From: an uncultured bacterium
Lineage (GTDB): Bacteria > Patescibacteriota > Minisyncoccia > Phycocordibacterales > GWA1-40-21
Direction: 5' to 3'
DNA: 64,000 bases
Assembly: GCA_903832855.1 (NCBI GenBank)
Contig: CAILDB010000012.1
Span: forward strand, 4,368 to 68,367
A program made the translations under genes and the position numbers. The notes under the pieces were generated by a model. It worked only from the letters and a program-made list of their open reading frames with translations. It was not told the origin of the DNA and made no database searches. Of this stretch, positions 6,861-49,251 are shown piece after piece (within the stretch, counting starts at the first letter, position 1; the number at the start of each line of letters is the position of its first letter).

Positions 6861-6892
6861 TAATGTCATCCCGGCGGAGGCCGGGATCCATT
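6861..6892 (+). repeat. family-1 palindromic repeat copy (tgtcatcccggcggaggccgggatccat)
   Basis: 8-bp GC stem atcccggc/gccgggat with a 4-nt loop. One of at least 10 copies in the window. Sits immediately after the smc stop. Confidence 0.8.
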
Positions 6893-6939
6893 ATTCTCTA
6901 ATAAAAAGCCCTTATTTTTAGCCATTTTCTGTAAAATGC

Positions 6940-6968
6940 TTGACAAAAAATATGAAAGGTGCTATACT
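6940..6968 (+). promoter_or_regulatory. sigma-70-like promoter TTGACA-N17-TGcTATACT
   Basis: Near-consensus -35, 17-bp spacer and an extended -10. Almost identical to the promoter at 38246-38274 (aggtgctatacttg). Confidence 0.45.
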
Positions 6969-7047
6969 TGAAGTAGGCTCGAAGTTAGGTTTATCGCTTA
7001 ACCTCAATCGGTACAAAAGTACCACAAGCGAAGAAAAAAGAGGAAAA

Positions 7048-7428
7048 ATGAAGAAGTTCCCATACAAGTTGGAGTATTGTCCGAATCCCAATGTTATTCA
7101 GATCCAAGCTCGCTCACGGTTCCCGAAACAGGGCAGTATGGATATACTGAATCTGCGACTCGGAGGTAAGGATCGCAAGCGTCACCCTCTCTATGTGGCG
7201 TTGAGCAAAATCAGTGGAATCGAGTCGGCATCGGCGACAGGTAGTGGTTACTGCCTTCAGGTCGCCAAGGCCAACGACCTGTTCTCATGGGATGAGATTC
7301 TGCCGAAGATTCTGGCTGCGATTCAGACTGCACTAGCAGGCAAGCGCCAGATGGCTCAGGTCGGTGAAGCAGTGCGTCCGAGCAGGGAGTATCTCATTGG
7401 ACTCCGGCTCCAGGGATGCGACGTCTGA
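7048..7428 (+). CDS. hypothetical protein in a GC-rich island (127 aa from the Met preceded by GAGG)
   Basis: The ORF track start at 6952 lies inside the promoter spacer. GAGG sits 4 nt before the ATG at 7048. The region is markedly GC-richer than its flanks. Confidence 0.35.
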   Translation: MKKFPYKLEYCPNPNVIQIQARSRFPKQGSMDILNLRLGGKDRKRHPLYVALSKISGIESASATGSGYCLQVAKANDLFSWDEILPKILAAIQTALAGKRQMAQVGEAVRPSREYLIGLRLQGCDV

Positions 7429-7504
7429 AGTATCAACAAGTCCATTTAGTGGGCGGAAAAAGTTTCCGCTTCCGAGAGTGGGCTTTTTCTTTTGCAAAAT
7501 TTAT

Positions 7505-9508
7505 TTAAATTATTTTATAATCCACGGTCTTTCTATCCGCGTCCGCATTTATGAGTTTAATTTTTACTTTGTCGCCGAGGGCGAATTTCTTTTTAGTTTT
7601 TTGACCGATGATGGCGTATTTCTTTTTGTCCAAAACATAGAAATCGTCGCCGATGCTTGAGAGCTTTACCATTCCTTCGGTTTTTGTATCTTTTTCTTCT
7701 ACATAAATGCCCCATTCCGTAACGCCCGTGATAGAGCCGTCAAAAATTTGTCCAACTTTGCTTGAAATAAATTCGATTTGTTTGAGTTTTTTTGCTTCTC
7801 TCTCGGCTTCGGTTGCGCGGATTTCATTTTGGCTACTTTCGGTGGCGATTTTCTCGTAATTTGCCCAGTCGGCTTCGGTGAGATTTTCTTTGTTGATTAT
7901 TTTGTCCAAAATTCTGTGAATGCAAAGGTCAGGATATCTTCTGATAGGTGAAGTGAAGTGCGTGTAAAATTCAAAAGCCAGACCAAAGTGCCCAATGTTT
8001 TTTGTGGAGTAAACGGCTTTTGACATTGACCTTATTGCAGTGGTTTTGATAAGTGCTTCTTCATCTTTTCCTTCAATTTTTTTGAAAAGCATTTGCAGGT
8101 CCTTTCCGGTAATCTCACCATTTTTGTTTCTAGGTAGAGTGTGTCCGAGCGCGTGCACAAAAAGTGAAAGTTCGGCGATTTTTTCTTTGTCTGGAATATC
8201 GTGAATTCTGAAAATAGGAGAGAATTTGAATCCACGATTTTTTATCATTTTGTAAAGGAATTGTGCGACTTCTCTGTTTGCAAGAAGCATGTATTCCTCC
8301 ACGAGTTTGTGAGTATCTAGGCGAACTTTTTTGTGAATTGCGAGAACTTTACCATTTGTATCCATTTCAAACTCAATTTCTTCATGCTCAAAATCAATCG
8401 CACCTTTTTGGATTTTTTCGGCTTGAAGTTTCTTGGCGATTTTGTTTAGGGTGTCTAGTTCGTAGAAAAATTCTTTTCCGTCTTTGCCAAGGTCCGACCT
8501 TGGTATTGAGGTATGTGTGTTATAATATGTTTTTGCTTGATTATCCAAAACCTCCTGTGCGCTTTCATAGGAAAATCTTTTTGCGGATTTTATAACTGTC
8601 TTTCCAAACCATCTTGAAAGCACTTTTGCATTTTTATCAACTTCAAAAATCGCCGAGTAAGCCATTTTTTCTTCGCCCTCATTCAAACTGCAAAGATTGT
8701 CGGAAAGAATTGAAGGAAGCATTGGAATTGTTCTGTCCGGCAAATACACGGAAAATCCTCTTTTTCTTGCCTCCTTATCCATCTCGGTTTTCTCACGAAC
8801 ATAAAAAGAAACATCAGCAATGTGAACGCCAATTTCAAATTTATCATCCGAAATTTTCTTGAATGAAATTGCGTCGTCAAAATCCTTTGCGGTCTTTGGG
8901 TCAATTGTGAAAGTTAAGGTATTTCTGAGATCTTTTCTTTTTTTGATTTCTTCTTGCCAGATTGATCTTGAGTTTGCATCCACTTGTTTGGCTTCGTTTT
9001 CCACTACTGCCTCAAATTTAGAATCAAAACCTTTTTCCGAAAGAATGGATTTCATTTCGGCAGTATTATCGCCTTTTTTACCGAAAATTTCTTGGAGTTT
9101 TCCTTCGGCGTCTTTACCAATGTCGCCCCAGTTTGTAATTAGAACAGAAGCTTTTTGACCGAGATTTTCTTTACTTGCGCCTTCTGTAATTTTGATTGTC
9201 GTTCTAGCTTTTTTGTCGTCGGGAATTAAAACAAAATCATTCTCTCTCATTTCCACAGTTCCTGAAAAAAGTTTTTTGTTTCTTTTGAGAATTTTTTCCA
9301 CACGTCCTTGCTGGCGTTCTCTCTTTGATGGTGCGGATATGGAAATGAGCACGGTATCTTTGTGCCATGCATTTTTCAAAAATTCACTCTTGATTTCGAT
9401 ATCTTCCTTAAAATCAAGCAGAGAAACATACCCCAGACCTTTGCCTGTGATACTTATGAGCCCTTCATATGATTTTATTTGATTTCCTTTTTGCTTGTGA
9501 TTGTCCAT
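7505..9508 (-). CDS. rnr: ribonuclease R (RNB family 3'-5' exoribonuclease)
   Basis: RNB domain motifs (HIADVSFYV, PMLPSILSDNLCSLNEGEEK); C-terminal S1 domain (GSITGVTEWGIYVEEKDTKTEGMVKLS). Confidence 0.85.
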   Translation of the reverse strand: MDNHKQKGNQIKSYEGLISITGKGLGYVSLLDFKEDIEIKSEFLKNAWHKDTVLISISAPSKRERQQGRVEKILKRNKKLFSGTVEMRENDFVLIPDDKKARTTIKITEGASKENLGQKASVLITNWGDIGKDAEGKLQEIFGKKGDNTAEMKSILSEKGFDSKFEAVVENEAKQVDANSRSIWQEEIKKRKDLRNTLTFTIDPKTAKDFDDAISFKKISDDKFEIGVHIADVSFYVREKTEMDKEARKRGFSVYLPDRTIPMLPSILSDNLCSLNEGEEKMAYSAIFEVDKNAKVLSRWFGKTVIKSAKRFSYESAQEVLDNQAKTYYNTHTSIPRSDLGKDGKEFFYELDTLNKIAKKLQAEKIQKGAIDFEHEEIEFEMDTNGKVLAIHKKVRLDTHKLVEEYMLLANREVAQFLYKMIKNRGFKFSPIFRIHDIPDKEKIAELSLFVHALGHTLPRNKNGEITGKDLQMLFKKIEGKDEEALIKTTAIRSMSKAVYSTKNIGHFGLAFEFYTHFTSPIRRYPDLCIHRILDKIINKENLTEADWANYEKIATESSQNEIRATEAEREAKKLKQIEFISSKVGQIFDGSITGVTEWGIYVEEKDTKTEGMVKLSSIGDDFYVLDKKKYAIIGQKTKKKFALGDKVKIKLINADADRKTVDYKII
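8487..8531 (+). repeat. family-2 palindromic repeat (ccaaggtccgaccttgg tattgaggtatgtgtgttataata) inside the rnr coding sequence
   Basis: 44 of 47 nt identical to the intergenic copy at 39163-39208. Here it is translated in-frame on the minus strand as ..TYYNTHTSIPRSDLGKD.. Confidence 0.7.
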
Positions 9509-9574
9509 GAATAACTATTTATCAACTGTAGCAAAAAATTTGACATTTGTCAGCTTTTTGTTAGTATGCTTTGT

Positions 9575-9958: not shown

Positions 9959-10189
9959 TGAATTTTGGCATCGGGTTTTCGGAAAAACCCAAATGAGCTA
10001 AATCTAATCTTATATCAAAAGTATTTTTTGTCTGAAGTTTTTTATATTATAGGAGGTTTTTCAATGCCAAAATCTACTACTGGGTGTTGTTTGCATTTTA
10101 TTTTTATGATACACTTTGAATAGGCAGTATAAATAAATTTACAGGTCGAATTACTGCATGATAATAATGAATTAATTTACAAAAAAAAT

Positions 10190-10531
10190 ATGTCAGAAAA
10201 CGATGTAAAGTTTCTTGAGTATGTTGTGAAAGCTCTTGTGGATGTTCCAGACAAAGTGGTCATTACAAGGACAGTAGATGAAATGGGTGTTTTACTTACT
10301 CTTACAGTAGACAATGCCGATATGGGCAAAGTTATTGGAAGACTCGGTAACACAGCCAAAGCCATCAGAACACTTCTTAGAGTTGTCGGTATGAAAAACA
10401 ATTCAAGAGTGAACTTGAAAATCAACGAACCAGAAGGAAGCACAAGAGGAGAATTTGTCGCTGGTGCAGCTAGACCAGAAATGAAATCTTCCAAGACCGT
10501 AGACGAAGCAATGGCAGATCTCAAGTTCTAG
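10190..10531 (+). CDS. KH-domain RNA-binding protein (UPF0109/YlqC-like)
   Basis: GKVIGRLGNTAKAIRTLL KH GXXG-type motif. Conserved position between rpsP and trmD. Confidence 0.6.
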   Translation: MSENDVKFLEYVVKALVDVPDKVVITRTVDEMGVLLTLTVDNADMGKVIGRLGNTAKAIRTLLRVVGMKNNSRVNLKINEPEGSTRGEFVAGAARPEMKSSKTVDEAMADLKF

Positions 10532-10617: not shown

Positions 10618-11343
10618 ATGAATTTTCATATTATTACATTATTTCCAGAGTCATTTAGCTCGTATTTGAATGAGTCAATCTTGGCACGGGCGATAAAAAA
10701 TAAATTTTTGAAAGTGGAATTTTACAATCCGCGAGATTTTGTGAAGCCGACGAAAGTACAGGCAAAAAAAAATAAGCCGTATCTGAGAGTTGATGATATT
10801 CCATATGGTGGAGGTCCTGGAATGATAATGCAAGCGGAGCCAGTGGCAAAAGCTGTTGAAGTTATATTGAAAAAAATAAAAAATCCCGGTAGTAAAATTC
10901 TGAAGACAGAATTTACTACGGGACTTCGCCGTAATAAGAATGTTAAGATAATCTTTTTGGTACCCGATGGAAAGATGTTTGATACGAGTTATGCGAAATT
11001 AACGGCTCGGAAATATTCCGATATTATAATAATTTGCGGAAGATATGAAGGAATAGACGAGAGAATAAATAAAATATTTAAGACGGACAAAATTTCCGTA
11101 GGAAATTTTGTCCTGACTGGTGGGGAATTACCGGCAATGATTATTTTGGATTGTATGGCAAGGCAAATCGATGGAGTTCTCGGAAATTTTTCATCTCGCG
11201 AAGAAGAACGTGTTGCAAGTAGTGAAGTTTACACTCGCCCAGAAGTTTTGACTTTCAAAAACAAAAAGTATGCCGTTCCAAAAATCCTTTTGTCCGGAAA
11301 TCACGCCAAAATTGAGGAATGGAGAAACCATGGCAAGGTCTGA
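10618..11343 (+). CDS. trmD: tRNA (guanine37-N1)-methyltransferase
   Basis: MNFHIITLFPESF ... DDIPYGGGPGMIM ... ICGRYEGIDERI motifs. Confidence 0.8.
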   Translation: MNFHIITLFPESFSSYLNESILARAIKNKFLKVEFYNPRDFVKPTKVQAKKNKPYLRVDDIPYGGGPGMIMQAEPVAKAVEVILKKIKNPGSKILKTEFTTGLRRNKNVKIIFLVPDGKMFDTSYAKLTARKYSDIIIICGRYEGIDERINKIFKTDKISVGNFVLTGGELPAMIILDCMARQIDGVLGNFSSREEERVASSEVYTRPEVLTFKNKKYAVPKILLSGNHAKIEEWRNHGKV

Positions 11344-11356
11344 CCTTGCCATGGGA
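11327..11356 (+). repeat. perfect 13+13 palindrome ccatggcaaggtc t gaccttgccatgg (family-2 core) overlapping the trmD stop
   Basis: The same CAAGGTC-N-GACCTTG core recurs at 8493, 21760 and 39167. Confidence 0.6.
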
Positions 11357-13115: not shown

Positions 13116-15422
13116 ATGAAGTTTGAACAATTAGGGCAAAAAACGGACTCGCAAGGTGAAATTTCAGCTCAGGAAAGCGAGCTCTTTATGATGGCCAAAA
13201 TGGAAACCGCAGATGAAAAAATTTTGGAACAATTTACACTAGAACAACAAAAAGAAATCAAAGAGAAACAAAAAATTCTTTCCTCCCTGGCTTATTATAT
13301 CAGCAAGGATTTTCAGATACCTATCGTTTTAGGTTTGCCAACAAAAGAATGTCCAAGCGGTTGGAAGTGGGTAAAAAATATGAAAGATGGAACGCAATTT
13401 ATTCAAATGAATGCTCATGATTTATTGACTAAGCCAATGGACTATCTACGCTTTGTCACTTCTCACGAAGGTGGACATGCCAGGATATCTCGTTTTGATT
13501 TCGTTGATATGACAGTTTATAACGAAAGAGGTTTTTCTTTTTTATTGAATGCCATAGAAGATCCACGAGACAATAATTTTGTGGCGGCTAACTATCCGCG
13601 TTTTGCCGAGCAGATGAAGCTGATTTATGAACAAGAGGAGATTTCAGAAAAAGAAACAAAGAAAAAAGCCAGTGATATGTTTGGTTTTCAACCTAGATTT
13701 ATGCAGGCTGGTTTTGAGTATATAAGACAATGGTATCGGGAAAGGACGAAGCAAAGTGCGGATATTTCCGCCGAATTACCAGCTGAAGTGCGAGCCGTCG
13801 TTAAAAAGACTATGGAATCAGCCAGCGGTGCTTGGAAAACTTATCCCACAAAAGAATTAGCCGATAAAGGTGGTGTTTTGTCTAGTGGTCAAAAAGTAGA
13901 TGGGGAGAAAATGATAACCGAATATGCCAAGCAATCATATGAAATTATTTTGGAAGAAATCTGGCCGGAATATCAGAAATTAGTAGAAAAAGATTTAGAG
14001 GATCAGAAAATGTCTGAACTACTAAAGGATCTTCAAAAAGAAAAACAGGAAAGAGAACAAGGTGAATCTGGTGATGAAAAAGGAAGTAAAAGTGGTGAAA
14101 AAAAAGATGGGGAGGGGAAAGGTGGGGACGGGTTACCAAAAGAATTAAAGGATAAGCTATCACCAGAAGAACAAAAAGAGCTTGAGAAAGCTATAGACAA
14201 AGCAATAGAAGATTCGAAAAAAGACGCAGAAAAATCAGAAGGTCAAGATACAGGTAAATTCAAAGCTATAGATATAGATTCACTTTCACCAGAATTGAAA
14301 AAGAAAATTCAGGATTTCTTGGATTCCTTGCCGGAAGAAAAGAAAAAAGAATTAGCAGAAAAAGCTGAGAAAGATCTGAGAGATTTTGAGAAGGAAATTG
14401 AAAAGGAAAGAGAGGGGAAATTGGTGGAAAATCCAGAGGAGAGAGAAAAAAGAGAAAGTGCGGAAAAATCGGAAAGAGAAAAAGAATTAGAGAAAGATAA
14501 AGACACGGAGGATGCTGATAAAAAAGAAAAAACGGATAAGAAAAAAGAACTGGATGAAAAAAAAGAAGCAGAAGAGAAGAGAAATAAAATAATAAAAGAT
14601 TCCGAAGAAATGCTTGAAAGAGTGAGAAAAAGCCTAAAGGGGCAAGAAAATGAATATCAAACAGAAATGAAACGGCTAGCCCCACAGATCAATTCTCTGA
14701 AAGAAAAATTAGCCGAAATATTTCAAGAGAGAAGGAAAAGAGGCATTAAAACTGGTTTTGAGGAAGGAGAAGAAATAGATGTGGAAAGACGCTTGCAAGA
14801 AAAAGCTAAGGGTATTTCTATTTTTGAGAGCCGTGCTTGGAGACGAACGGAATTACCAAAAGAGAAGGATTATGCAATTTCCTTGCTTGTAGATTTGTCT
14901 GGTTCAATGGAAGGTGAAAGAATAAAAGAGGCATTTGAAGCGACTGTCCTTTTTACTGAGGTCTTGAATTCTCTGGGTATAAAAACAGAAATCTTGGGTT
15001 TTAACGATCGCCTCTACGAATATCAAAAATTTAATGACCGACTTTCTGGGGATATAAGAAAAAAAATAATTACGATGGAAAGTCGAGTTCATTTGTCTGG
15101 GAGTGGATATAATGATGATGGTTGGGCTGTTACTGAAACGGCAAAAAGATTACAAGCAAGAAAAGAAAAAGAGAAACTTTTGCTGGTTATTTCTGATGGT
15201 GAGCCAGTAAATTCAAACAGACATGATGGTCCAGAATACGAGCTTGGAACGGTGGTAGAAAAAATAATGAGAGAGGGTGAAGTAAAAATAGTCGGACTTG
15301 GCTTGGGCCGTTCGGGAGTGGACGCTGTTAAGCAATTTTACCCAAAACATCTATTAGCTAATAGTGCCGAGCAAATGATTGAAAAGATTGGTGATCTGCT
15401 TTTAGAAGTAATAAAAGGGTGA
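13116..15422 (+). CDS. vWA-domain protein with an N-terminal HExxH zincin-like motif and a long E/K-rich coiled region; likely partner of the downstream MoxR-like ATPase
   Basis: HEGGH at FVTSHEGGHARISRF with a downstream Glu (NAIEDPRD). C-terminal vWA MIDAS LLVDLSGSMEG, SDGEP, VGLGLG. Paralogous to the 3..938 vWA. Confidence 0.6.
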   Translation: MKFEQLGQKTDSQGEISAQESELFMMAKMETADEKILEQFTLEQQKEIKEKQKILSSLAYYISKDFQIPIVLGLPTKECPSGWKWVKNMKDGTQFIQMNAHDLLTKPMDYLRFVTSHEGGHARISRFDFVDMTVYNERGFSFLLNAIEDPRDNNFVAANYPRFAEQMKLIYEQEEISEKETKKKASDMFGFQPRFMQAGFEYIRQWYRERTKQSADISAELPAEVRAVVKKTMESASGAWKTYPTKELADKGGVLSSGQKVDGEKMITEYAKQSYEIILEEIWPEYQKLVEKDLEDQKMSELLKDLQKEKQEREQGESGDEKGSKSGEKKDGEGKGGDGLPKELKDKLSPEEQKELEKAIDKAIEDSKKDAEKSEGQDTGKFKAIDIDSLSPELKKKIQDFLDSLPEEKKKELAEKAEKDLRDFEKEIEKEREGKLVENPEEREKRESAEKSEREKELEKDKDTEDADKKEKTDKKKELDEKKEAEEKRNKIIKDSEEMLERVRKSLKGQENEYQTEMKRLAPQINSLKEKLAEIFQERRKRGIKTGFEEGEEIDVERRLQEKAKGISIFESRAWRRTELPKEKDYAISLLVDLSGSMEGERIKEAFEATVLFTEVLNSLGIKTEILGFNDRLYEYQKFNDRLSGDIRKKIITMESRVHLSGSGYNDDGWAVTETAKRLQARKEKEKLLLVISDGEPVNSNRHDGPEYELGTVVEKIMREGEVKIVGLGLGRSGVDAVKQFYPKHLLANSAEQMIEKIGDLLLEVIKG

Positions 15423-15870: not shown

Positions 15871-17850
15871 ATGGAAGGACTACCAATAATACAAAATCCA
15901 GAGATACCAGAGGAGATACCAAAAAGAAAACCAGAAAAAATAAAATTTGGTAAGCTTGGCGTTGCCCTTGAAGTAGCTGAGAATAGAGGTAATGCTCGAG
16001 ATACGAGAGAATATGAGGATGATTTTAAGATTCCAACCATTGAATGGATGGAGGGTGAGATTGCTATGGCATTTCGAGAAAATGAACCGATTTTGATTGA
16101 GGGTGGAACTGGTATTGGTAAAACAAGGACAGTGGAGAGGATGTGTGCCCAACTTGGTTATGAATTATATAAGCTTCCTTGTTCTTCCTCTACCACAGAA
16201 AGGGAAATGATGGGGCGTTATGTTTCCAATTCCGAACGAAAGTCAAAATTAGATCCAGAAGTCATTTTTGCTCTTGGGGTTATTGCCGAAGGGCTCAAGG
16301 AGGAACCTGGTAAAATAAAAGTTATATATTTAGACGAAATAAATGCTATGGACGGAGCTGTCGGTGCCAGATTGCATGATATTTTAGATGAAGCAAAAAA
16401 AGAAAAAGTAAAGGGAAGAGTAAAACTTGTGGAAGATGCTGGAGAAGTTTTAGAATTTGATCCTAAAAGAGTAAAGATAGTGGCTACGATGAACTCCGCC
16501 GATTCAAAAAATACTCACGCCCAGAAATTATCCGAGGCACTACTACGGCGTTTTACTTACAAGAGAACAGTAGATGAATTGCCAGACGTGGAATTTTTAA
16601 GCATTGCTTTACAAAAATTTCAATCAAATGAAATTCTGAAGGATTTACCGGGTATTTCCGATGAGGGGGAATTGATAAAGGCATACTCTGAATGTCATAA
16701 GGCCTTACAGGGTTTAAAAAGAAATAATCAGATTGGCGTAGGCGTCGCTCAAGATTTTAAATTTGAAGATATAGATTATCTAAAGAGAGTAATCAAAAAA
16801 GTGGCAGTATTTTGGGAAGACGGTATCTTTACCGATTTGCCATCGGCTTTCAGAGAGGCTGTAAAAATCGTTTATACCGGTATGATTGTTGATCCAACTG
16901 AAAGAAAAATGATGGAGGAACAGATTTCTAAATTGGATTTCAAGCCAGTGGAAGATCCCAACAGAAAAGGTTTGGATGACAGGAGAAAAGCCAAAAAGTT
17001 GGCTGAAGAAGCGGAAAGAAAAAAGAAAGAAGAGGCAGAAGCTTTGAAAGCTAAAACCGAGTTGGGCAGGGCTGAATTGGCACTTGAAGAAATCAAGAAA
17101 AAAGAGGCTAAATTAAAAATGGCACTCCGAAAAGGTAAAAAAGAGCTGTCTGGCGAGACGGCAGAAGCAGAAGAGATTTCAGTAGAATATAAAAGAAAAG
17201 ATACTAAAGGCAAAGAAAAATCCGAAACTATTTCTTTAAACTTTGAAAAAGAGCTTACTGATTGGACTGATTTTTATACTAAACACGGTATTGAGTTACC
17301 TGCAGATTTTGCTGAACAGATGCAAGACATATGGAATAGAAATGCAGATGTGATAACAGAAGCTATCAAAGAAAAAGGGTTCAATAATGTTTTATTTATT
17401 CCAGATGGCCTTCCTTCATTGTCTATTTTGGACGAAAAGATGACGGAAGGTTATGAAAAAGCAAAAGGAAACAAGACATATTGGGAAATGAAAAAAGAAG
17501 AAATCACGGAGAAAAGAAGCGGTGGTCGAATTATTTTACTTCACGATTCTATTGAACCAGATGATATTCCTGAATTGGCCGTAACCCTAGGAAAAACTGC
17601 CCAATCCTTTTTGGACGCCAAAGAAGAACTTACAGTTTCTGAATACCTACTTTTGCAAAGGGAAATATTTGAAAAAACGGGTAAACATATAGACGACAAA
17701 AGAACCAGTTGGGTTCCTGGTGCTAGGGTCGGTTCCGGTGTCGTTCGTGCCTGCTGGGGTCCTGATGGTGCGCAGGTGGGTGTGAATTCCGGTGCGCCTG
17801 GCGATTCCTTTTCTGATATTGGGTGCCGGCTCTCCCGCTGTTTCAAATAA
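15871..17850 (+). CDS. DGR target T1: MoxR-like AAA+ ATPase fused to a coiled coil, a conserved module and a C-terminal diversified CLec-like domain (VR1)
   Basis: Walker A LIEGGTGIGKT, Walker B VIYLDEIN, sensor-1 ATMN, MoxR-type LLRRF. The C-terminal 40 aa are encoded by VR1 and end GCRLSRCFK. Confidence 0.75.
   Translation: MEGLPIIQNPEIPEEIPKRKPEKIKFGKLGVALEVAENRGNARDTREYEDDFKIPTIEWMEGEIAMAFRENEPILIEGGTGIGKTRTVERMCAQLGYELYKLPCSSSTTEREMMGRYVSNSERKSKLDPEVIFALGVIAEGLKEEPGKIKVIYLDEINAMDGAVGARLHDILDEAKKEKVKGRVKLVEDAGEVLEFDPKRVKIVATMNSADSKNTHAQKLSEALLRRFTYKRTVDELPDVEFLSIALQKFQSNEILKDLPGISDEGELIKAYSECHKALQGLKRNNQIGVGVAQDFKFEDIDYLKRVIKKVAVFWEDGIFTDLPSAFREAVKIVYTGMIVDPTERKMMEEQISKLDFKPVEDPNRKGLDDRRKAKKLAEEAERKKKEEAEALKAKTELGRAELALEEIKKKEAKLKMALRKGKKELSGETAEAEEISVEYKRKDTKGKEKSETISLNFEKELTDWTDFYTKHGIELPADFAEQMQDIWNRNADVITEAIKEKGFNNVLFIPDGLPSLSILDEKMTEGYEKAKGNKTYWEMKKEEITEKRSGGRIILLHDSIEPDDIPELAVTLGKTAQSFLDAKEELTVSEYLLLQREIFEKTGKHIDDKRTSWVPGARVGSGVVRACWGPDGAQVGVNSGAPGDSFSDIGCRLSRCFK
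17725..17844 (+). other. DGR variable repeat VR1
   Basis: About 120 bp matching the TR at 19040-19165. About 18 mismatches fall at TR adenines and 3 at non-A positions. IMH is ggGtgccggctctcccgcTgtttc. Confidence 0.75.
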
Positions 17851-21665: not shown

Positions 21666-21728
21666 TTTGTCATTCCTGCGTAGGCAGGAATCCATCCCTT
21701 CTGTCATCCCAGCGGATGCTGGGATCCA
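21666..21728 (+). repeat. two tandem family-1 palindromic repeat copies (variants cattcctgcgtaggcaggaatc and catcccagcggatgctgggatc)
   Basis: Sequence identity to the other copies, with compensatory stem changes. Confidence 0.75.
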
Positions 21729-21753
21729 GTATTTAATTTATGAAATCATATCT

Positions 21754-21778
21754 ATGGCAAGGTCTGACCTTGTCAAAG
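21754..21778 (+). repeat. family-2 palindrome core (atggcaaggtctgaccttgtc)
   Basis: Matches the palindrome at 11327-11356. Confidence 0.5.
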
Positions 21779-28950: not shown

Positions 28951-28992
28951 GTCTGTCATCCCGGCGAAGGCCGGGATCCATCCCTTCTGTCT
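28951..28992 (+). repeat. family-1 palindromic repeat copy immediately after the rpoC stop
   Basis: tgtcatcccggcgaaggccgggatccatcccttctgtc. Confidence 0.8.
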
Positions 28993-29059
28993 TTGCGAGG
29001 GTTTTCCCGAAGCAATCCAGTTCTTCAAAATTTGTTTATTAATTTATTAATCTAATTAA

Positions 29060-37335: not shown

Positions 37336-38190
37336 ATGTTAGATTTAATTATTTTAGGATTTACGGAGGGAATCACTGAGTTTTTGCCTATTTCATCTTC
37401 TGGACATTTGATATTGATTAGAGATATTTTTGGGATGAAGACAGGTTTTGATTTGTCTTTTGACGCGGTTTTGCAACTTGCTACTGGGCTTGCTCTCGTA
37501 GTATATTTTTGGAAAGATATTTGGAATCTGATCGTCACTTTTTTTTCACTTCTGTCATCCCGGCGCAGGCCGGGATCCATCTCTGACCCGATGGATTCCG
37601 TTCTACAACGGAATGACAATCGGGAACAAGATGACAGAAAAAGAAATTGGATTTTGATTTGGGCAATCATCCTCGGCACAATTCCCGCTGTCATCGGCGG
37701 ACTTCTTTTACAGAAACAAATGGATACGGTTTTTAGAAATTTACACCTTGTCGCTTATGTTCTCATTGCCGGAAGTATCGTAATGTATCTTGCAGAATGG
37801 TTTTCAAAACAAAATAAAGAACTCACTGTCGGTAAAGGATTTATCGTCGGACTTTTTCAGTGTCTCGCACTTCTCCCCGGATTTTCTCGCTCTGGCGCAA
37901 CCATTTCCGGTGGACTTTTCATGGGCTTCAATAGGGAACAGGCAGCGCGATTTTCCTTTTTGCTTTCAATACCAATTATCGTTGGCTCAGGTCTCTTAAA
38001 ACTTTTTGAGCTCATTCATAGCCACGAACTCGGAGGTCTTGGCCTTCCGCTTCTTGTCGGTTCGCTCGTTGCTTTTTTGTCAGGGCTTCTTGTCGTTCAT
38101 TATCTCCTCAAATTCCTCAAAAATCACAAATTAAATATTTTTGCATACTATCGCGTGATTTTGGCGCTCATAATTTTGGCCTTTTTGTAA
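37336..38190 (+). CDS. uppP: undecaprenyl-diphosphatase carrying an in-frame family-1 repeat insertion in a loop
   Basis: LGFTEGITEFLPISSSGH ... LPGFSRSGATISGG signature motifs. Residues RRRPGSISDPMDSVLQRNDNREQ are encoded by the repeat. Confidence 0.8.
   Translation: MLDLIILGFTEGITEFLPISSSGHLILIRDIFGMKTGFDLSFDAVLQLATGLALVVYFWKDIWNLIVTFFSLLSSRRRPGSISDPMDSVLQRNDNREQDDRKRNWILIWAIILGTIPAVIGGLLLQKQMDTVFRNLHLVAYVLIAGSIVMYLAEWFSKQNKELTVGKGFIVGLFQCLALLPGFSRSGATISGGLFMGFNREQAARFSFLLSIPIIVGSGLLKLFELIHSHELGGLGLPLLVGSLVAFLSGLLVVHYLLKFLKNHKLNIFAYYRVILALIILAFL
37550..37640 (+). repeat. family-1 palindromic repeat (extended multi-hairpin variant) inside the uppP coding sequence
   Basis: tgtcatcccggcgcaggccgggatccatctc, plus additional hairpins (gatccatc..gatggattc; ccgttctacaacgg). 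Confidence 0.75.
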
Positions 38191-39162: not shown

Positions 39163-39208
39163 CGTTGCCAAGGTCGGACCTTGGTATTAGGTATTGTGTG
39201 TTATAATA
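39163..39208 (+). repeat. family-2 palindromic repeat (ccaaggtcggaccttgg tattaggtattgtgtgttataata), intergenic
   Basis: Near-identical to the 8487-8531 copy inside rnr. Contains a TGTGTTATAAT extended -10-like element. Confidence 0.7.
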
Positions 39209-40502: not shown

Positions 40503-40582
40503 ATATGTATATTCTATACAAAAGAGAGTATTTCTACAAGGGGCAGCTTTACATTTAATCCTGAATACGATAATATATCAAT

Positions 40583-40762
40583 ATGCAAAAGAAATATAAT
40601 TTTCCGGTTATAATAGAAAAAGACGAAAACAATATCTATATTGCCACTGTGCCTTCTTTGCGTGGATGTCATACCCAAGCCAAAAGCTTATCCACTTTGT
40701 ATAAAAGAATAGAAGAAGTGGTTTCTCTTTGTCTGGAAGTGGAAAGAACAGTTTTAATTTAA
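40583..40762 (+). CDS. HicB-like (UPF0150) antitoxin-family protein, 59 aa
   Basis: Not in the ORF track. MQKKYNFPVIIEKDENNIYIATVPSLRGCHTQAKSLSTLYKRIEEVVSLCLE matches the UPF0150 pattern (YxVIEKDEDGGYVAxVPxLPGCxTQG..). No HicA seen nearby. Confidence 0.55.
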   Translation: MQKKYNFPVIIEKDENNIYIATVPSLRGCHTQAKSLSTLYKRIEEVVSLCLEVERTVLI

Positions 40763-40771
40763 AATAATCTC

Positions 40772-40808
40772 CTCTGTCATCCCGGCGAAGGCCGGGATCC
40801 ATCTTAAT
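40772..40808 (+). repeat. family-1 palindromic repeat copy upstream of the GIY-YIG gene
   Basis: ctctgtcatcccggcgaaggccgggatccatcttaat. Confidence 0.8.
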
Positions 40809-40819
40809 TTCTTAATCTT

Positions 40820-41134
40820 ATGGAAACTTACTCTGTCTATATTCTTGCTAGTAAAAAGGAAGGAACCTTATATATTGGTGTAACTTCAGATCTAGAAAAA
40901 AGGGTCTGGCAACATAAGAACAAAATTATCAAAGGATTTACAGAGAAATACAATGTAAATAAATTGGTCTATTACGAACAGACAGGAAATGTAGAATCAG
41001 CACTAACTAGAGAAAAGCAATTAAAAGAATGGCAGAGAAGATGGAAAATCAGACTGATTGAAAAAGATAATCCAGAGTGGAATGACCTCTATGAAGAATT
41101 AAGAACAGATGGATCCCGACCTGCGTCGGGATGA
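40820..41134 (+). CDS. small GIY-YIG nuclease superfamily protein
   Basis: YSVYILASKKEGTLYIGVTSDLEKRVWQHKN ... YYEQ..N...ALTREKQLKEWQR resembles the GIY-YIG core. The last 9 codons are supplied by an inverted family-1 repeat. Confidence 0.7.
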   Translation: METYSVYILASKKEGTLYIGVTSDLEKRVWQHKNKIIKGFTEKYNVNKLVYYEQTGNVESALTREKQLKEWQRRWKIRLIEKDNPEWNDLYEELRTDGSRPASG

Positions 41135-41140
41135 CAGAGG
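41109..41140 (-). repeat. family-1 palindromic repeat copy, inverted orientation, overlapping the GIY-YIG 3' end
   Basis: ggatcccgacctgcgtcgggatgacagagg is the reverse complement of the family-1 consensus. Confidence 0.75.
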
Positions 41141-41269
41141 TTTGCAATGTTTGTATACTTTGTGCTATACTACACAATAGCAGTAAACAAGCTCTCGTAG
41201 GTTTAAGTTTTCTTAGCCGTTTGAGAAGTGGTCGTTCTGCGAATTTTATTAGTAGAATATTTCAAGCAA

Positions 41270-41560: not shown

Positions 41561-41586
41561 TAATTGACTCGCTAGAGTTTGATAGA

Positions 41587-41630
41587 AAAGTAAAGGGCCC
41601 CGAAATCTGATTTCGGGGCCCTTTACTTTT
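41587..41630 (+). terminator. hairpin aaagtaaagggccccgaaatctgatttcggggccctttacttt
   Basis: 17-bp stem followed by T-rich sequence. Confidence 0.55.
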
Positions 41631-41750
41631 CCCCAAGAAGTAGTAATATCTCTCTTGGATTGTTATTTTTAAATATTGGTTTTAGGAATGTGATCTCTAC
41701 CGAGTGGTGGGGATTGTGAAGGAAAAAACAAGAAAAAGGGAGATGAAGTT

Positions 41751-42359
41751 ATGACAAAGAGGCCACATGACAGTAACTTTCGGCAAACTATTCCGGTAAG
41801 GGTGGATATCGGTAAAAAACCGAATATGCCACCTGACGACAGGTTCCACAAAAATGTCTTCGGATTGGATCCGAAGGATGCCCAGCACATTACAGACAAT
41901 GTTGATGAGCACGGCGTCATGTGGGTTTCCATTTTGGATCCTGTCTATCCGGCTGGATGTGGAAAGCGAACTGTTTTTGGAGCTATGCAAATTATTCACG
42001 CTTTGGGAGGGTATCCTCTGAACGTGAAGGAGGCGCATGCTGGGGCTGAAGCCATTGAGAGGATGATCGCGCACAATTTTTCGGAGGTATCAAAAGTTGG
42101 TGTTGCCTTTCCGTGTTTGGGTACACAGTACTATTCACCGGAAGATGAGCATCCAGCTTTTACTCTCTTGTGGCATCGGCTCTTGGAAGGTGCTTCTTGT
42201 CACAGGTTCCATTTCTGTCGTCTCATGAAGTTTTGGCCGGACGCTGTTCGAGAACCGCTTTTTTGTCCGGCAGAGTGGAGAATTCCTTTCGCTATTCCGG
42301 CTGAATCTGTTAGCAGTTTTACCGCTGCGATAGTGCCAGACGAAGTTGAGGTTGAGTAA
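41751..42359 (+). CDS. hypothetical protein encoded in a GC-rich island
   Basis: AAGGGAG Shine-Dalgarno 7 nt upstream. GC content is markedly above the flanks. Bounded downstream by family-1 repeats. Confidence 0.35.
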   Translation: MTKRPHDSNFRQTIPVRVDIGKKPNMPPDDRFHKNVFGLDPKDAQHITDNVDEHGVMWVSILDPVYPAGCGKRTVFGAMQIIHALGGYPLNVKEAHAGAEAIERMIAHNFSEVSKVGVAFPCLGTQYYSPEDEHPAFTLLWHRLLEGASCHRFHFCRLMKFWPDAVREPLFCPAEWRIPFAIPAESVSSFTAAIVPDEVEVE

Positions 42360-42410
42360 TCGCAGAATGCGCGTCGGGACCGAGTGTCCCTTCGCGCTTT
42401 TTTAATGTCT

Positions 42411-42441
42411 CTCTGTCATTCCTGCGGAGGCAGGAATCCAG
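42411..42441 (+). repeat. family-1 palindromic repeat (variant cattcctgcggaggcaggaatc)
   Basis: Sequence similarity to the other copies, with compensatory stem changes. Confidence 0.7.
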
Positions 42442-42573
42442 TTCTTATTTTCTGGATTGCTTTCTTACAGAAACTGTCCACTCATTGGATCTTTTGTTTC
42501 GCATTGCTCACAAAAGCCCTCAATGAGTCTTGCAGAAGCAAATACTTTTGCTTCCTCACATTTCACTCGCAAA

Positions 42574-42617
42574 GACAGAGGGGATGGATCCCAGCCTTCG
42601 CTGGGATGACAGAAAGG
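42574..42617 (-). repeat. family-1 palindromic repeat, inverted relative to the 42411 copy
   Basis: gacagaggggatggatcccagccttcgctgggatgacagaaagg. Confidence 0.7.
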
Positions 42618-42621
42618 ATTT

Positions 42622-45543: not shown

Positions 45544-45653
45544 ATTGAGCTCCTTTTCTATTTTGTTTCTGTTGCCAATCCTTTTATATAATATGCTTTT
45601 TAATCAAAAAAGTCAATAGATAACAAATTTCATTTTTCTGTTATAATTTCTCT

Positions 45654-48035
45654 ATGCAAGATGAAGTTGAAAAAATAAAAAAATATGTTCGTGCGACAAA
45701 TTATCTTACAGTTGCTCAAATATATTTGCAGGACAATTATTTACTAAAAAATAAACTTACTTTTAACGATATCAAGTCTAGACTCCTTGGCCATTGGGGA
45801 ACTTGTCCAGGGATTAATTTTGTCTATGCAAACCTAAATAATTTAATTACAAAAACTTGTGCAAAAATGGCTTTTGTCCTAGGTCCCGGTCACGGATTTC
45901 CTGCACTCCAAGCCAATCTTTTTTTGGAAGGAACTTTGGGAAAATATTATCCAGAAGCTACAAAAGATTTTGCTGGTCTATCATATGTTGCCAAGGAGTT
46001 TAGCTGGCCATACGGATTTCCAAGTCATTCTAGTCCTGTCACCCCCGGAGTAATTCTCGAGGGTGGAGAACTCGGGTATTCTCTTTCTGTCTCTTATGGT
46101 GCGGTGCTAGATAACCCTGAACTTATCGTGGCATGTCTAGTCGGAGATGGTGAAGCGGAAACAGGACCACTTGCGACTGCGTGGCATTTGAATAAATTTA
46201 TTGATCCTGCGACAAATGGTGCTGTACTTCCGATATTGCATTTAAATGGTTACAAAATTTCCGGTCCAACTATCTTTGGCAGAATGAATAATTCTGATTT
46301 GAAATCCCTTTTCAAAGGCTACGGATATGAGCCGATAATTGTAGAAGGTAAAAACGACAAAGTTTATGAAAAAATGATAAAAGCTTTGGATGAATCGTAT
46401 GCGAAGATAAAAGCAATTCAAAAAGAAGCCAGAGAAAATAAAACTGAAAATAAAATCGCAAATGATGAAAAATATTTTGCCAGATTTCCTATGATAATTC
46501 TCAAAACACCAAAAGGATGGACTGGGATTAAAACCCTTAAAGGCGACAAAATAGAAGGGAATTGTCTGTCACACCAAGTCGTTGGAAAAGAAGCAAAGAC
46601 CGACAAAGTAGAATTAAAAGCGATAGAAAAATGGATGCACTCGTATAAATTTGAAGAACTTTTCAGCGAAGAAAAAGGTTTTGTGGAGGAACTTTCTAAA
46701 AATATTCCAAGAGAGGAACTGCGAATGGGGGACAATCCACATGCATATGGAATTAAAAAAGGAGACAATTCTAGAGATTTAATTTTGCCGGAAATTAACG
46801 AATTTTACGAAGATTTTTTGAACAGAGGTAAAGAAAATGTTGGTTCAATGAAGAAAATCGGCACATATCTCACTGAGGTTTTTAAATTAAATAAAGAAAA
46901 GAAAAATTTTCGTTTGATGTCACCAGATGAGACATATTCCAATCGTTTGCAGGATGTTTTTACACAAACCTCTCGTGCCTTCACTGGTCCCGTGATGGAA
47001 TGGGACAATAATATTTCCGCAGATGGCCGAGTAATGGAAATGCTTTCTGAACATTCAATGCAAGGGCTTGCGCAGGGTTACACTCTTACTGGAAGATTTG
47101 CGATTTTTGCCTCGTATGAGGCATTTATTCCAATTGTTTCAAGTATGGCGGATCAATATTCTAAATTTTTGAAAATTGCCAGAAAAACAGAGTGGCGAGG
47201 AGATGTTCCTTCGTTTAATTATATTTTGACTTCGTCTGGCTGGCGTCAGGAACACAACGGTTTTTCTCATCAGAACCCAGGATTTATAGATGGACTTTTG
47301 CAAAAGCACAACGACTTTATCAGCGTATTTTTCCCAGCAGATGCAAACGAGGCTATGGCTGTGATGAAAAGATGTTTGTCTTCAAAAAATGAAATAAATA
47401 TTATTGTCGCGGAAAAAACAATTGAGCCGATTTGGCTTAAAAAAGAAGAAGTTGAAAAAGAACTTGCGGACGGACTTTCTGTTTGGGATTTTGCAAGTGA
47501 TGAAAATCCTGACATCGTAATTGCTGGTTGCGGACAATATCTCGTCAAAGAGGCACTCGCCACAATTGATTTGATTAAAAAAGAAGTACCGGAAATAAAA
47601 GTGCGATTTGTAAATATTTTGGAACTTTCACCAAATACTATCGGTAGTGCACTTTCTCAAATGCCGGAAGATAAATTTGAAAAATATTTTACAAAAGATA
47701 AGCCAGTGATATTTAATTTCCACGGATATCCAGAAACCCTCAAGCAATCTATTTTTGATTATGAAAATGCGCTCGGCAGATTTTCTGTCCACGGATATTT
47801 GGAAAATGGATCTACTACAACGGCGTTTGATTTGCACATTAGAAATAAGACAGACAGATATAATCTTTTGATTGAAACGGTTTTAAAAATGGCAAAAAAT
47901 GGCGTGATTACCGAAGACAAAGCTTCAAAAATAGTAGAAATTTATCAACAAAAAATAATTGACCACAAAGAATACATAATTAAATTCGGCGCCGATCCAG
48001 ATGAAATAGAAAAGTGGCAGTGGAGTAAAAACTAA
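45654..48035 (+). CDS. xfp: xylulose-5-phosphate/fructose-6-phosphate phosphoketolase
   Basis: GHWGTCPG signature; thiamine-diphosphate enzyme motifs (GDGEAETGPLATAWH, EHSMQGLAQGY). Confidence 0.85.
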   Translation: MQDEVEKIKKYVRATNYLTVAQIYLQDNYLLKNKLTFNDIKSRLLGHWGTCPGINFVYANLNNLITKTCAKMAFVLGPGHGFPALQANLFLEGTLGKYYPEATKDFAGLSYVAKEFSWPYGFPSHSSPVTPGVILEGGELGYSLSVSYGAVLDNPELIVACLVGDGEAETGPLATAWHLNKFIDPATNGAVLPILHLNGYKISGPTIFGRMNNSDLKSLFKGYGYEPIIVEGKNDKVYEKMIKALDESYAKIKAIQKEARENKTENKIANDEKYFARFPMIILKTPKGWTGIKTLKGDKIEGNCLSHQVVGKEAKTDKVELKAIEKWMHSYKFEELFSEEKGFVEELSKNIPREELRMGDNPHAYGIKKGDNSRDLILPEINEFYEDFLNRGKENVGSMKKIGTYLTEVFKLNKEKKNFRLMSPDETYSNRLQDVFTQTSRAFTGPVMEWDNNISADGRVMEMLSEHSMQGLAQGYTLTGRFAIFASYEAFIPIVSSMADQYSKFLKIARKTEWRGDVPSFNYILTSSGWRQEHNGFSHQNPGFIDGLLQKHNDFISVFFPADANEAMAVMKRCLSSKNEINIIVAEKTIEPIWLKKEEVEKELADGLSVWDFASDENPDIVIAGCGQYLVKEALATIDLIKKEVPEIKVRFVNILELSPNTIGSALSQMPEDKFEKYFTKDKPVIFNFHGYPETLKQSIFDYENALGRFSVHGYLENGSTTTAFDLHIRNKTDRYNLLIETVLKMAKNGVITEDKASKIVEIYQQKIIDHKEYIIKFGADPDEIEKWQWSKN

Positions 48036-48036
48036 T

Positions 48037-49209
48037 ATGAAAAAATATTTAATAATAAATCCAGGAAGTGCATCCAGAAAATACGCGCTATATGAAGGCG
48101 AAAAAGAACTCGCTTATATGCATATTGAGAGTGAAGAGGGGGGGAATGAAATTAGCACTGTTACTGCACAAGGTAAAAAAGAAAAGAAAAATATTAGTGC
48201 TGAAGATTTTGATAAGTCGTTTGAATATACATTAAATGAACTCATAAAAGCTGGGCTTATTGCGAGCAAAGAGGATATTGCGGTCTGCGGAATTAGAGTC
48301 GTCGCTCCTGGAAATTTTTTCTTGCAAGATAAAATAATAAATTCTGAATATAAAAAATTGTTGAAAAAAGCTTTTGAAAAAGCGCCTCTTCATATTGCGC
48401 CAATTTTGGAAGAAATTAAAAAAATACGATATGCAATTGGAAGAATTCCTTTAGTTGGTATTTCGGACAGTGCGTTTCATTCCAGTATGATGGAAAAGTC
48501 CAAGAGATACGCAATACCATCTGAGGATGCAGAAAAATTTGAAATTTTCAGATATGGCTATCACGGAATTTCTTTGAGGTCTATTGTTTCAAAAATGGAA
48601 AAATCAGGGCCAATTCCAGAAAATGTAATTATCTGCCACATTGGTGGGGGTGTCAGCGTAACCGCGCTCAAAAATGGTAAAAGCATAGATACTACTATGG
48701 GACTTACTCCACTTGAAGGAGTCGTAATGGCGACAAGGGTGGGTGATATTGATTCTGGAGCGGTTGTTTATTTGTCCAAAGTAAAAAAGTTGAAAGGCAA
48801 AAATCTTTTGCAATACTTAAATAAAAAATGCGGACTTCTGGGAATAAGCGGGAAAAGTGATGATGTTCGCGATTTGATTAAAGCCGAAAACGAGGGCGAC
48901 AATCTTTCAAAACTTGCTCTTGATATGTATGCCTACAAAATTCAAAAATACATTGGTGCCTATGCAGTAGCTCTCGGTGGTCTTGATACAATTGTTTTTT
49001 CTGGAACAGTGGGGGAGAGATCTTTTTTGATGAGAGAAAGAATTTGCAAGGGGCTTGGATTTCTCGGTGTTGAAATAAATTCAATATTAAATAACACATC
49101 AGATAGTATAGATGTCGTCTTGAGCTCTCCAGAATCAAAAGTAAAAGTAGAAGTGGTCAAGACTGATGAAATGGCACAGATGGCAAAAGATACTGCAAAG
49201 TTTCTATAA
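48037..49209 (+). CDS. ackA: acetate kinase
   Basis: LIINPGSASRKYALYE N-terminus; HIGGGVSVTALKNGKSIDTTMG; VGERS motif. Confidence 0.85.
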   Translation: MKKYLIINPGSASRKYALYEGEKELAYMHIESEEGGNEISTVTAQGKKEKKNISAEDFDKSFEYTLNELIKAGLIASKEDIAVCGIRVVAPGNFFLQDKIINSEYKKLLKKAFEKAPLHIAPILEEIKKIRYAIGRIPLVGISDSAFHSSMMEKSKRYAIPSEDAEKFEIFRYGYHGISLRSIVSKMEKSGPIPENVIICHIGGGVSVTALKNGKSIDTTMGLTPLEGVVMATRVGDIDSGAVVYLSKVKKLKGKNLLQYLNKKCGLLGISGKSDDVRDLIKAENEGDNLSKLALDMYAYKIQKYIGAYAVALGGLDTIVFSGTVGERSFLMRERICKGLGFLGVEINSILNNTSDSIDVVLSSPESKVKVEVVKTDEMAQMAKDTAKFL

Positions 49210-49210
49210 T

Positions 49211-49251
49211 CCCTTCTGTCATCCCGGCGGAGGCCGGGATCCATCTTAATC
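49211..49251 (+). repeat. family-1 palindromic repeat copy after the ackA stop
   Basis: cccttctgtcatcccggcggaggccgggatccatcttaatc. Confidence 0.8.

Follow-up and report, generated by a model that had tools for sequence, protein, structure and literature searches.

The stretch of DNA analysed here, which we call the window, comprises 64,000 nucleotides from an uncultured bacterium of the Minisyncoccia, within the candidate phyla radiation (CPR) (GenBank assembly GCA_903832855.1, contig CAILDB010000012.1, positions 4,368 to 68,367). It contains eleven copies of a short GC-rich hairpin, most of them located just behind stop codons, and a small gene, ssn, that has one copy at each end and encodes a GIY-YIG protein. 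We conclude that these hairpins (family 1) are very probably lineage-specific members of the CGTC-1 group of repetitive extragenic palindromes (REPs), also known as Ssn-related motifs (SRMs), and that the window holds their cognate Ssn-family GIY-YIG nuclease. The combination of hairpin and Ssn is an already known system, first characterised in 2025.

The hairpin copies and the genes and units that they touch are listed below in window coordinates. L202 is the closest named relative, the Minisyncoccia metagenome-assembled genome GCA_049695975.1, which is syntenic with the window from 27.5 to 49.6 kb at about 80% identity; ORF stands for open reading frame.

6865..6892, + strand: copy 1, stem ATCCCGGC, loop GGAG; 10 nt past the smc stop codon
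21669..21696, + strand: copy 2, stem ATTCCTGC, loop GTAG; 17 nt past ORF 20547-21650, first of a head-to-tail pair
21703..21730, + strand: copy 3, stem ATCCCAGC, loop GGAT; 6 nt past copy 2
28955..28982, + strand: copy 4, stem ATCCCGGC, loop GAAG; 8 nt past the rpoC stop codon, site empty in L202
28983..29020, + strand: family-2 unit CCTTCT-GTCTTTGCGAGGGTTTTCCCGAAGCAATCCAG, adjoining copy 4; TGTC tag, tail ending in CCAG, interrupted stem; not in L202
37336..38190, + strand: uppP/bacA, 284 aa, Pfam BacA (E = 2e-84); holds copies 5 and 6 in frame
37554..37581, + strand: copy 5, stem ATCCCGGC, loop GCAG; within uppP, translated as ..LLSSRRRPGSIS..
37590..37617, - strand: copy 6, stem ATTCCGTT, loop GTAG; within uppP, translated as ..MDSVLQRND..
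40776..40803, + strand: copy 7, stem ATCCCGGC, loop GAAG; 12 nt past a hicB-like ORF and 16 nt ahead of the ssn start, left arm of the SRM-ssn-SRM arrangement
40820..41134, + strand: ssn homologue, 104 aa, PF01541 (E = 1.3e-15), core residues 1-94
41108..41135, - strand: copy 8, stem ATCCCGAC, loop GCAG; right arm of the SRM-ssn-SRM arrangement, overlapping the 3' end of ssn
42415..42442, + strand: copy 9, stem ATTCCTGC, loop GGAG; 54 nt past a 202-aa ORF, beyond a terminator-like hairpin
42452..42576, - strand: family-2 unit between copies 9 and 10, with halves GTCTTTGCGAG ... GAAAGCAATCCAG about 100 nt apart
42583..42610, - strand: copy 10, stem ATCCCAGC, loop GAAG; 10 nt past the bipA stop codon, in the same orientation as bipA
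49218..49245, + strand: copy 11, stem ATCCCGGC, loop GGAG; 7 nt past the ackA stop codon, site empty in L202

Eleven copies of one hairpin family

A preliminary description of this DNA, drawn up from the sequence letters, had claimed at least ten copies of a GC-rich palindrome in a genome of about 35% GC. All ten positions that it listed are indeed occupied, and our motif search and copy count, which cover the 64-kb window, added an eleventh copy at 37590-37617(-), in a sequence whose GC content we measured at 36.8%. The originally proposed consensus retrieved seven copies when up to three mismatches were allowed (none in 100 shuffles), while a looser search found exactly eleven 28-nt hairpins of the form TGTC-ATYCCNNN-GNAG-NNNGGRAT-CCA (one copy per 5.8 kb), whose cores start at 6865+, 21669+, 21703+, 28955+, 37554+, 37590-, 40776+, 41108-, 42415+, 42583- and 49218+. 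The same eleven copies, and no others, were returned by a rule-based detector for CGTC hairpins (GTC or CTC tag, stem of 8-9 bp beginning with AT, loop of 4-5 nt, at most one mismatch), which gave 0.59 matches on average, and never more than 3, in shuffled sequences. A covariance model built from the eleven copies scored them at 36-63 bits. Since the next match in the window reached just 13 bits, the window contains no hidden degenerate copies.

The preliminary description had left room for an assembly artefact. This is ruled out, because the same copies recur in L121, an independent assembly. We also considered a strand bias, with 8/11 copies on the G-rich strand, and rejected it, as it is confounded with gene orientation and not significant.

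Anatomy, folding and covariation of the hairpin

Once aligned, the copies read TGTC-AT(Y)CC(NNN)-GNAG-(NNN)GG(R)AT-CCA, and most of them have in addition a pyrimidine leader, CCYTCT, and a tail lengthened to CCATC. The unit is oriented, measures 28-34 nt and folds into a hairpin on one DNA strand. Invariant elements are the unpaired TGTC tag (11/11), the two outer A-T/T-A pairs (all 11 stems begin with AT), the CC/GG core and the CCA tail (11/11); variation is limited to loop position 2 and to the inner stem pairs, where every change is compensated. Ten copies have the loop GNAG and one has GGAT. Five stems occur: ATCCCGGC five times, ATTCCTGC and ATCCCAGC twice each, ATCCCGAC and ATTCCGTT once each.

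Each copy was folded as single-stranded DNA, and all 11 gave an identical structure, a perfect 8-bp stem closed by a 4-nt loop, as had been predicted beforehand (-7.7 to -11.7 kcal/mol, z -3.1 to -4.9). The earlier claim that compensatory changes preserve the stem proved equally sound: the stem cells are paired in 88/88 cases and both sides have changed at 4/8 pairs (10 cells), a degree of covariation reached by 0/500 shuffles. The conclusion then drawn, that selection acts on structure, covers only part of the matter. Covariation speaks for it, but the unpaired GTC and the C that follows the stem are invariant too, and these are the bases reported to be critical for cleavage and binding by SsnA.

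Position relative to genes and terminators

Eight of the nine extragenic copies lie downstream of a gene's stop codon and read in the same direction as that gene. The distance from stop codon to TGTC tag is 7 nt for ackA, 8 nt for rpoC, 10 nt for smc and for bipA, 12 nt for the hicB-like ORF and 17 nt for ORF 20547-21650; the other two of the eight are the tandem copy behind ORF 20547-21650 and the copy located 54 nt past the 202-aa ORF. The GIY-YIG gene takes its stop codon from copy 8, which overlaps it. The statement that most copies fall within 5-10 nt of stop codons was thus right about their place just after stops and too narrow about the distance, as the gaps are 7-17 nt, one copy lies 54 nt away and two are inside uppP. 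The reading of the repeat as a REP-like extragenic palindrome is supported, and all the features of CGTC-1 REP anatomy fit.

Such a placement would suit RNA elements, namely terminators or 3'-end stabilisers selected after highly expressed genes: eight of the nine extragenic copies, 7-54 nt past a stop codon and in sense orientation, would be transcribed as a stable stem-loop, and Di Nocera et al. 2013 hold that many REPs act in RNA. However, a T-tract follows none of the 11 copies, which continue instead with CCATC..., and a terminator scan of 36-50 kb called 0/7 copies terminator-like. Separate hairpins with T-runs lie nearby, one after rpoC (conserved in L202) and one between the 202-aa ORF and copy 9. 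Moreover, L202 has no hairpins at the same gene ends, two copies sit in a coding frame, one runs antisense to ssn at its end, and RNA stability leaves the invariant unpaired GTC and the C unexplained. We consider a primary role in RNA unlikely, and a secondary effect of the hairpins on mRNA decay or mRNA ends possible.

Membership in a known family of repeats

We searched the 22-mer CATCCCGGCGNAGGCCGGGATC in a collection of species-representative genomes and found it, in exact form, in at least 120 genome stretches. Among the matches listed, the hosts are Alpha-, Beta- and Gammaproteobacteria, Microgenomates, Actinobacteria, Gemmatimonadales, Desulfobacterales and two archaeal records; many of these matches are inverted doublets, and outside the stem only (C/T)GTC and CCA are conserved among them. 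The motif is also present in 46 stretches of viral or prophage contigs.

The repeat has the anatomy of the CGTC-1 group defined by Di Nocera, De Gregorio & Rocco 2013 (BMC Genomics 14:522), who equated it with Neisseria dRS3 and Rickettsia conorii RPE-6: an unpaired CGTC tag (TGTC and CCTC being allowed), an 8-bp stem with complementary A-T and T-A at its first and second positions, a 4-nt loop and a CCA tail. The same authors found no REP-associated tyrosine transposase (RAYT) flanked by CGTC repeats and described these as having no dedicated transposase, reported intragenic CGTC REPs, and suggested that many REPs function at the RNA level.

Chenal et al. 2025 (Nat Commun 16:2388) have shown that SsnA of N. 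meningitidis, a 94-aa protein of the cd10448 family, binds a 28-nt sequence, the NTS CGTCATTCCCGCGMAVGCGGGAATCYRG, which contains dRS3. Binding takes place exclusively on single-stranded DNA and the cut falls a few nucleotides upstream. Cleavage is controlled by the three bases 5' of the palindrome, binding by the C just 3' of it. Homologues from three other species act likewise on their own hairpins. The gene architecture is NTS-ssnA-NTS, and in their survey an SRM lies near 71% of the homologues and on both sides of 42%. In Neisseria, the system reduces transformation by NTS-bearing DNA, and the study also refers to a phage recombinase that targets dRS3.

In the window, the GTC 5' of the palindrome and the C 3' of it are invariant in 11/11 copies and coincide with the functional positions identified by Chenal et al. 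2025. The preliminary description was correct in taking the family for REP-like, but missed that it is the known dRS3/NTS/SRM family and that its partner is a GIY-YIG gene. We do not put forward the link between hairpin and GIY-YIG gene as new, and dropped it as such, as the 2025 study reports the same association with biochemistry.

The ssn gene and its product

The ssn gene (40820-41134) is enclosed by the copies at 40776(+) and 41108(-), whose tags point outward. Copy 7 ends 16 nt before the ATG, and copy 8 encodes the last 8 residues together with the TGA stop codon. The product, whose 104 aa are below the 150-aa size limit of the single-domain Ssn nucleases, matches PF01541 over residues 4-77 (E = 1.3e-15) and shows no second domain; no NCBIfam model scored above its cut-off for this protein. 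More than 7,900 homologues were found. Typically they measure 94-97 aa and share 65-80% identity with it; a source is named for a few of them, and these include CPR bacteria as well as Proteobacteria. Of the best 120 homologues, about 25 carry C-terminal tails that are translated hairpins (DGSRPASG, DSGSSPE, GFPPARE...) or N-terminal extensions of this kind (MSFRWRPESSVF-).

Residues Y7, Y18, R28, E65 and N84 are invariant across 53 homologues. Judging from the one-residue offset, Y7, Y18 and E65 would correspond to Y6, Y17 and E64 of the Neisseria protein. The predicted structure (pLDDT, the predicted local distance difference test score, of 88) has GIY-YIG proteins as its closest folds, namely the UPF0213 protein 1zg2, Slx1 and the N-terminal domain of UvrC. 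The fold search was clearer than a sequence search of solved structures, which gave spurious matches to WD40 repeats and a weak match to UPF0213 1zg2.

An origin of ssn in phages or a role in anti-phage defence was also considered and rejected, as PADLOC and PHROGs gave only marginal matches to GIY-YIG and homing endonucleases. A pattern-based scan of viral contigs confirmed just 10 ssn homologues.

Separately, the outward tag of copy 8 (GGGATGACAG, window 41131-41159) gives ATGACA, 17 nt upstream of TATACT and ahead of a gene for an RNA recognition motif (RRM) protein. These promoter-like boxes derived from copy 8 are probably incidental, and the orthologous promoter seems to be the following one (TTGCAA, 18 nt, TATACT).

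Hairpins beside ssn homologues in other genomes

We examined 80 metagenome loci with 82 ssn-homologous genes. A CGTC hairpin lies within 150 nt upstream of 43/82 genes, downstream of 51/82 and on both sides of 33/82. The density of hairpins is 8.9 per kb at up to 50 nt from the gene vs 0.07-0.09 per kb at more than 1 kb, an enrichment of about 100-fold. The orientation is that of the window, with tags outward: + for 43/48 upstream hairpins and - for 49/61 downstream ones. At 16 of the 80 loci a canonical Neisseria NTS (at most one mismatch) lies within 150 nt of the gene, with homologues 53-69% identical. Most of the loci scored as negative by the rule carry variant hairpins, which have longer loops or stems that do not begin with AT.

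Two loci, L261 (3930-4353) and L262 (3957-4313), hold ssn homologues 75% and 90% identical, in the contexts prfB-ftsE and downstream of gyrB. Both have one to two hairpins per side, with the CCYTCT leader, the same tail and stem variants that are found in the window. L261, which belongs to the same sample series as L121, hints at a possible second ssn paralogue in the source genome.

Classical REPs, or REP doublets forming hairpins (REPINs), mobilised by a RAYT, that is, a Y1 HUH transposase of the IS200/IS605 type, have a similar general look: they are short, GC-rich palindromes outside genes, form inverted doublets and follow stop codons. In addition, locus L203, from a strain of the relative, contains a weak 66-aa Y1_Tnp fragment (13254-13454, upstream of thrS and about 9.5 kb downstream of uppP). 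Nothing in the window corresponds to this fragment, however (tblastn E >= 0.27), and we found no Y1_Tnp domain in the 20 ORFs adjoining copies in the 64-kb window. Furthermore, the tag is TGTC/CGTC and not GTAG, the gene flanked here and in about 80 loci encodes a GIY-YIG protein and not a Y1 transposase, and no RAYT flanked by CGTC repeats is known from Di Nocera et al. 2013. Mobilisation by a RAYT thus appears very unlikely to us.

Two copies in frame within uppP

Copies 5 and 6 form an inverted doublet with outward-pointing tags inside uppP, where they add the segment ..LLSSRRRPGSISDPMDSVLQRNDNR.. to the UppP protein. The protein was aligned with homologues of 256-267 aa; those 76-80% identical to it, of 256-262 aa, are devoid of the approximately 22 residues found here, and the site falls between conserved blocks of the alignment. 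At the DNA level, the uppP gene of one of them, locus L204, has an empty site. In L202, uppP has at the same site a decayed family-1 unit with a family-2-like unit behind it, and a further family-2-like unit in frame elsewhere; two such units are translated (..VIASEDGAIQ..). This suggests that units accumulate beside existing units.

One could ask at this point whether the repeat is a conserved protein-coding feature or, after all, an artefact of assembly. Two copies are translated in uppP, and reverse-strand ORFs beginning MDPGLRRDD recur; the spurious ORF MDPGLRRDDR... mentioned in the preliminary description was found at 40608-40802(-). On the other hand, the copies are read in several frames and are mostly intergenic, the uppP orthologues (76-80%) are without the segment, the same copies appear in independent assemblies and the motif is present in at least 120 unrelated stretches. 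A conserved coding feature, which the preliminary description had itself named as a possible refutation, is ruled out on these grounds, and the probability of this explanation as a whole is negligible.

Gain, loss and breakpoints in relatives and strains

The comparison of orthologous loci, advocated in the preliminary description, revealed filled vs empty sites after rpoC and ackA. At both places the stop codon of L202 is directly followed by a conserved AT-rich spacer, with no family-1 unit in between, and after rpoC the abutting family-2 unit is likewise absent. Two larger modules are also lacking in L202. The first, of 620 nt (window 40540-41161), lies between hisS and the RRM gene and consists of the hicB-like ORF (40583-40762) and the hairpin-ssn-hairpin arrangement. 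The second, of 1 kb (window 41564-42620), lies between the RRM gene and bipA and contains the 202-aa ORF and two hairpins. This ORF (41751-42359) has a GC content of 48% vs 37% for the window, is followed by the terminator-like hairpin and then by the hairpins, and gave no match in Pfam, PHROG or PADLOC. With the covariance model we detected one decayed copy in the 20.9 kb of L202 vs eight in the orthologous stretch of the window.

A difference of another kind was seen in the strain L121, which is 99.8% identical to the window over 4.8 kb and leaves it exactly inside copy 10 (region 42583-42613 of the window, 4759-4803 of L121). The frame of the hairpin is kept there, with stem ATTCCGTT in place of ATCCCAGC, and the genes beyond, including an M23 peptidase, are unrelated. 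Judged from the alignment, the breakpoint points to a rearrangement or an insertion at the hairpin. Whatever the mechanism, the presence/absence and breakpoint data fit a mobile or recombinogenic element.

These observations may also be read in another way, with the hairpins serving a site-specific recombinase or a phage as places of recombination or integration and the GIY-YIG gene uninvolved. The differences in gene content that set the window apart from L202 and from L121 start at hairpins, dRS3 is cited as the target of a phage recombinase, and the motif occurs in the 46 viral or prophage stretches mentioned above. Nevertheless, among annotated ORFs no recombinase gene lies next to the copies, and the approximately 100-fold enrichment at ssn homologues comes with fixed spacing and orientation, which argues against an incidental presence of ssn. 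We regard such sites without involvement of ssn as highly improbable; recombination at the hairpins as such does not exclude the involvement of Ssn, with which it is compatible.

The second repeat, family 2, deserves to be described on its own. It reads (CCTTCT)GTCTTTGCGAG...GAAGCAATCCAG and is found at window positions 28983-29020(+) and 42452-42576(-) and in L202 at 10230-10275. It has a TGTC tag, a tail ending in CCAG and an interrupted stem, and it always adjoins a family-1 copy. Family 2 is probably another class of SRM.

Other features of the window

A third palindrome, GGCAAGGTCNGACCTTGCC, occurs in four copies (8486-8502, 11332-11350, 21756-21774 and 39167-39183). Those at 8484 and 39165 have 49 nt in common (84% identical), and behind them stands TGTGTTATAAT, a sequence similar to an extended -10 box. 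The third palindrome could be an operator or a promoter element.

Two paralogous pairs were noted, 51444-52826 / 56823-58205 (84% identity over 300 nt) and 15871-17850 / 20547-21650 (81% over 234 nt), and a 66-nt block of 3' ends is present three times, at 17726, 19046 and 21490.

The gene for tRNA-Asn(GUU), at 49286-49617(-), is interrupted by a group I intron (Rfam RF00028, 80 bits, 49344-49593). The intron extends from about 49337 to 49583 and separates anticodon positions 35 and 36 (between ..CCTGT and TAAGCG..). ARAGORN found no tRNA in the window, and the tRNA-Asn gene of L202 (20162-20235) has no intron. Group I introns occur in bacterial genes for tRNA-Leu, tRNA-fMet, tRNA-Arg and tRNA-Ile; to our knowledge, none has been described in bacterial tRNA-Asn.

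Discussion

If it behaves like the four Ssn proteins assayed in vitro, the Ssn of the window would bind the hairpin solely as single-stranded DNA, would read the stem sequence together with the C just 3' of the stem, and would make its cut on the 5' side of the GTC tag, a few nucleotides away. We take the solo copies for non-autonomous relatives of the two hairpins beside ssn, which this lineage has probably acquired behind stop codons, beside each other and in frame within uppP; they also mark points at which the gene content of relatives differs. We infer that Ssn acts on the copies in the window and may drive, or once have driven, their spread. As to what the cell would gain, the hairpins might control how incoming single-stranded DNA recombines or make the genome more plastic, or they may bring no benefit at all and be selfish DNA.

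Several observations weigh against this interpretation. The SRM string HGTCWYN(0-2)YYVSBRHN(0-5)WNVSBRGN(0-2)RNCYNB fits 4/11 copies exactly (0.05 expected), and the remaining copies depart from it by one (3 copies), two (3) or three (1) substitutions; the Neisseria NTS string matches 0/11 copies. Changing the palindrome while keeping the hairpin abolished the activity of Neisseria SsnA (Chenal et al. 2025). The window has five stems and one ssn, and because Neisseria SsnA needs the sequence of the palindrome, not all of the copies may be substrates. In addition, at the three filled/empty sites we saw neither a target-site duplication nor a footprint of transposition, in flanks that are only about 80% identical, and the presence/absence pattern could equally be the result of loss in the relative.

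One may go a step further and see in the hairpin-ssn-hairpin arrangement an active mobile element of this CPR lineage, resembling an insertion sequence, with Ssn as the enzyme that propagates the CGTC REPs. We offer this as a tentative proposal, more doubtful than probable; we know of no transposition chemistry for Ssn. If it were true, Ssn would seed hairpins after stop codons, beside existing copies and in frame within essential genes such as uppP, and would create the breakpoints at which strains differ. In an episymbiont that imports DNA, the hairpins could also mark incoming single strands that are cut before recombination.

The assignment of the repeat explains the GC-rich islands in this 37%-GC sequence and the recurring spurious ORFs such as MDPGLRRDD. 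It also shows that the hairpins are annotation traps, which produce false N- or C-terminal extensions and false small ORFs. The Ssn/SRM system is hereby extended to a CPR (Minisyncoccia) host; the main text of Chenal et al. 2025 mentions neither CPR/Patescibacteria hosts nor in-frame intragenic copies. New, besides the host, are the filled vs empty sites, a doublet inserted in frame in UppP, which is an essential membrane enzyme, and the breakpoint within a hairpin. Although they do not define a new kind of system, such sites are useful material for understanding how CGTC repeats spread and whether Ssn drives this spread.

Comparison with known systems

Rickettsia palindromic elements (RPEs), reportedly described by Ogata and colleagues in 2000, are said to be inserted in frame in protein-coding genes. 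The doublet in uppP shares with them the palindromic repeat in frame within an essential gene, the peptide added at a loop position of the alignment and the intact reading frame. It differs in that a doublet of 28-nt hairpins stands in place of an RPE of 100-150 bp, and that one such gene was found in 64 kb.

REP/REPIN-RAYT systems, reportedly established by Nunvar in 2010 and by Bertels and Rainey in 2011, offer a second parallel. In both cases one nuclease gene lies between inverted hairpins recognised as single-stranded DNA, and non-autonomous hairpins and doublets are scattered elsewhere. The enzyme is a GIY-YIG protein here vs an HUH Y1 transposase, and the tag is CGTC/TGTC vs GTAG.

The likeness to the CGTC-1 REPs is closer and extends to the tag, the 8-bp stem beginning with AT, the 4-nt loop, the CCA tail and the inverted dimers, as well as to the location mostly downstream of genes, with occasional intragenic copies. 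CGTC-1 REPs are not associated with RAYTs, and the 20 ORFs next to copies in the 64-kb window show no Y1_Tnp domain. The host is different, a 37%-GC member of the Minisyncoccia (CPR) vs mainly Alphaproteobacteria, within five phyla, in Di Nocera et al. 2013. Also different are the tag, which is TGTC and not CGTC in all 11 copies, the lineage-specific leader CCYTCT and the longer tail CCATC.

As for NTS/SsnA, the stem is ATCCCGGC here vs ATTCCCGC. The two have in common the order hairpin-ssn-hairpin, a single-domain GIY-YIG protein of about 94 aa with the conserved catalytic Tyr, Tyr and Glu, and an oriented hairpin with GTC upstream and C after the stem, present in many solo copies and clustered around some genes.

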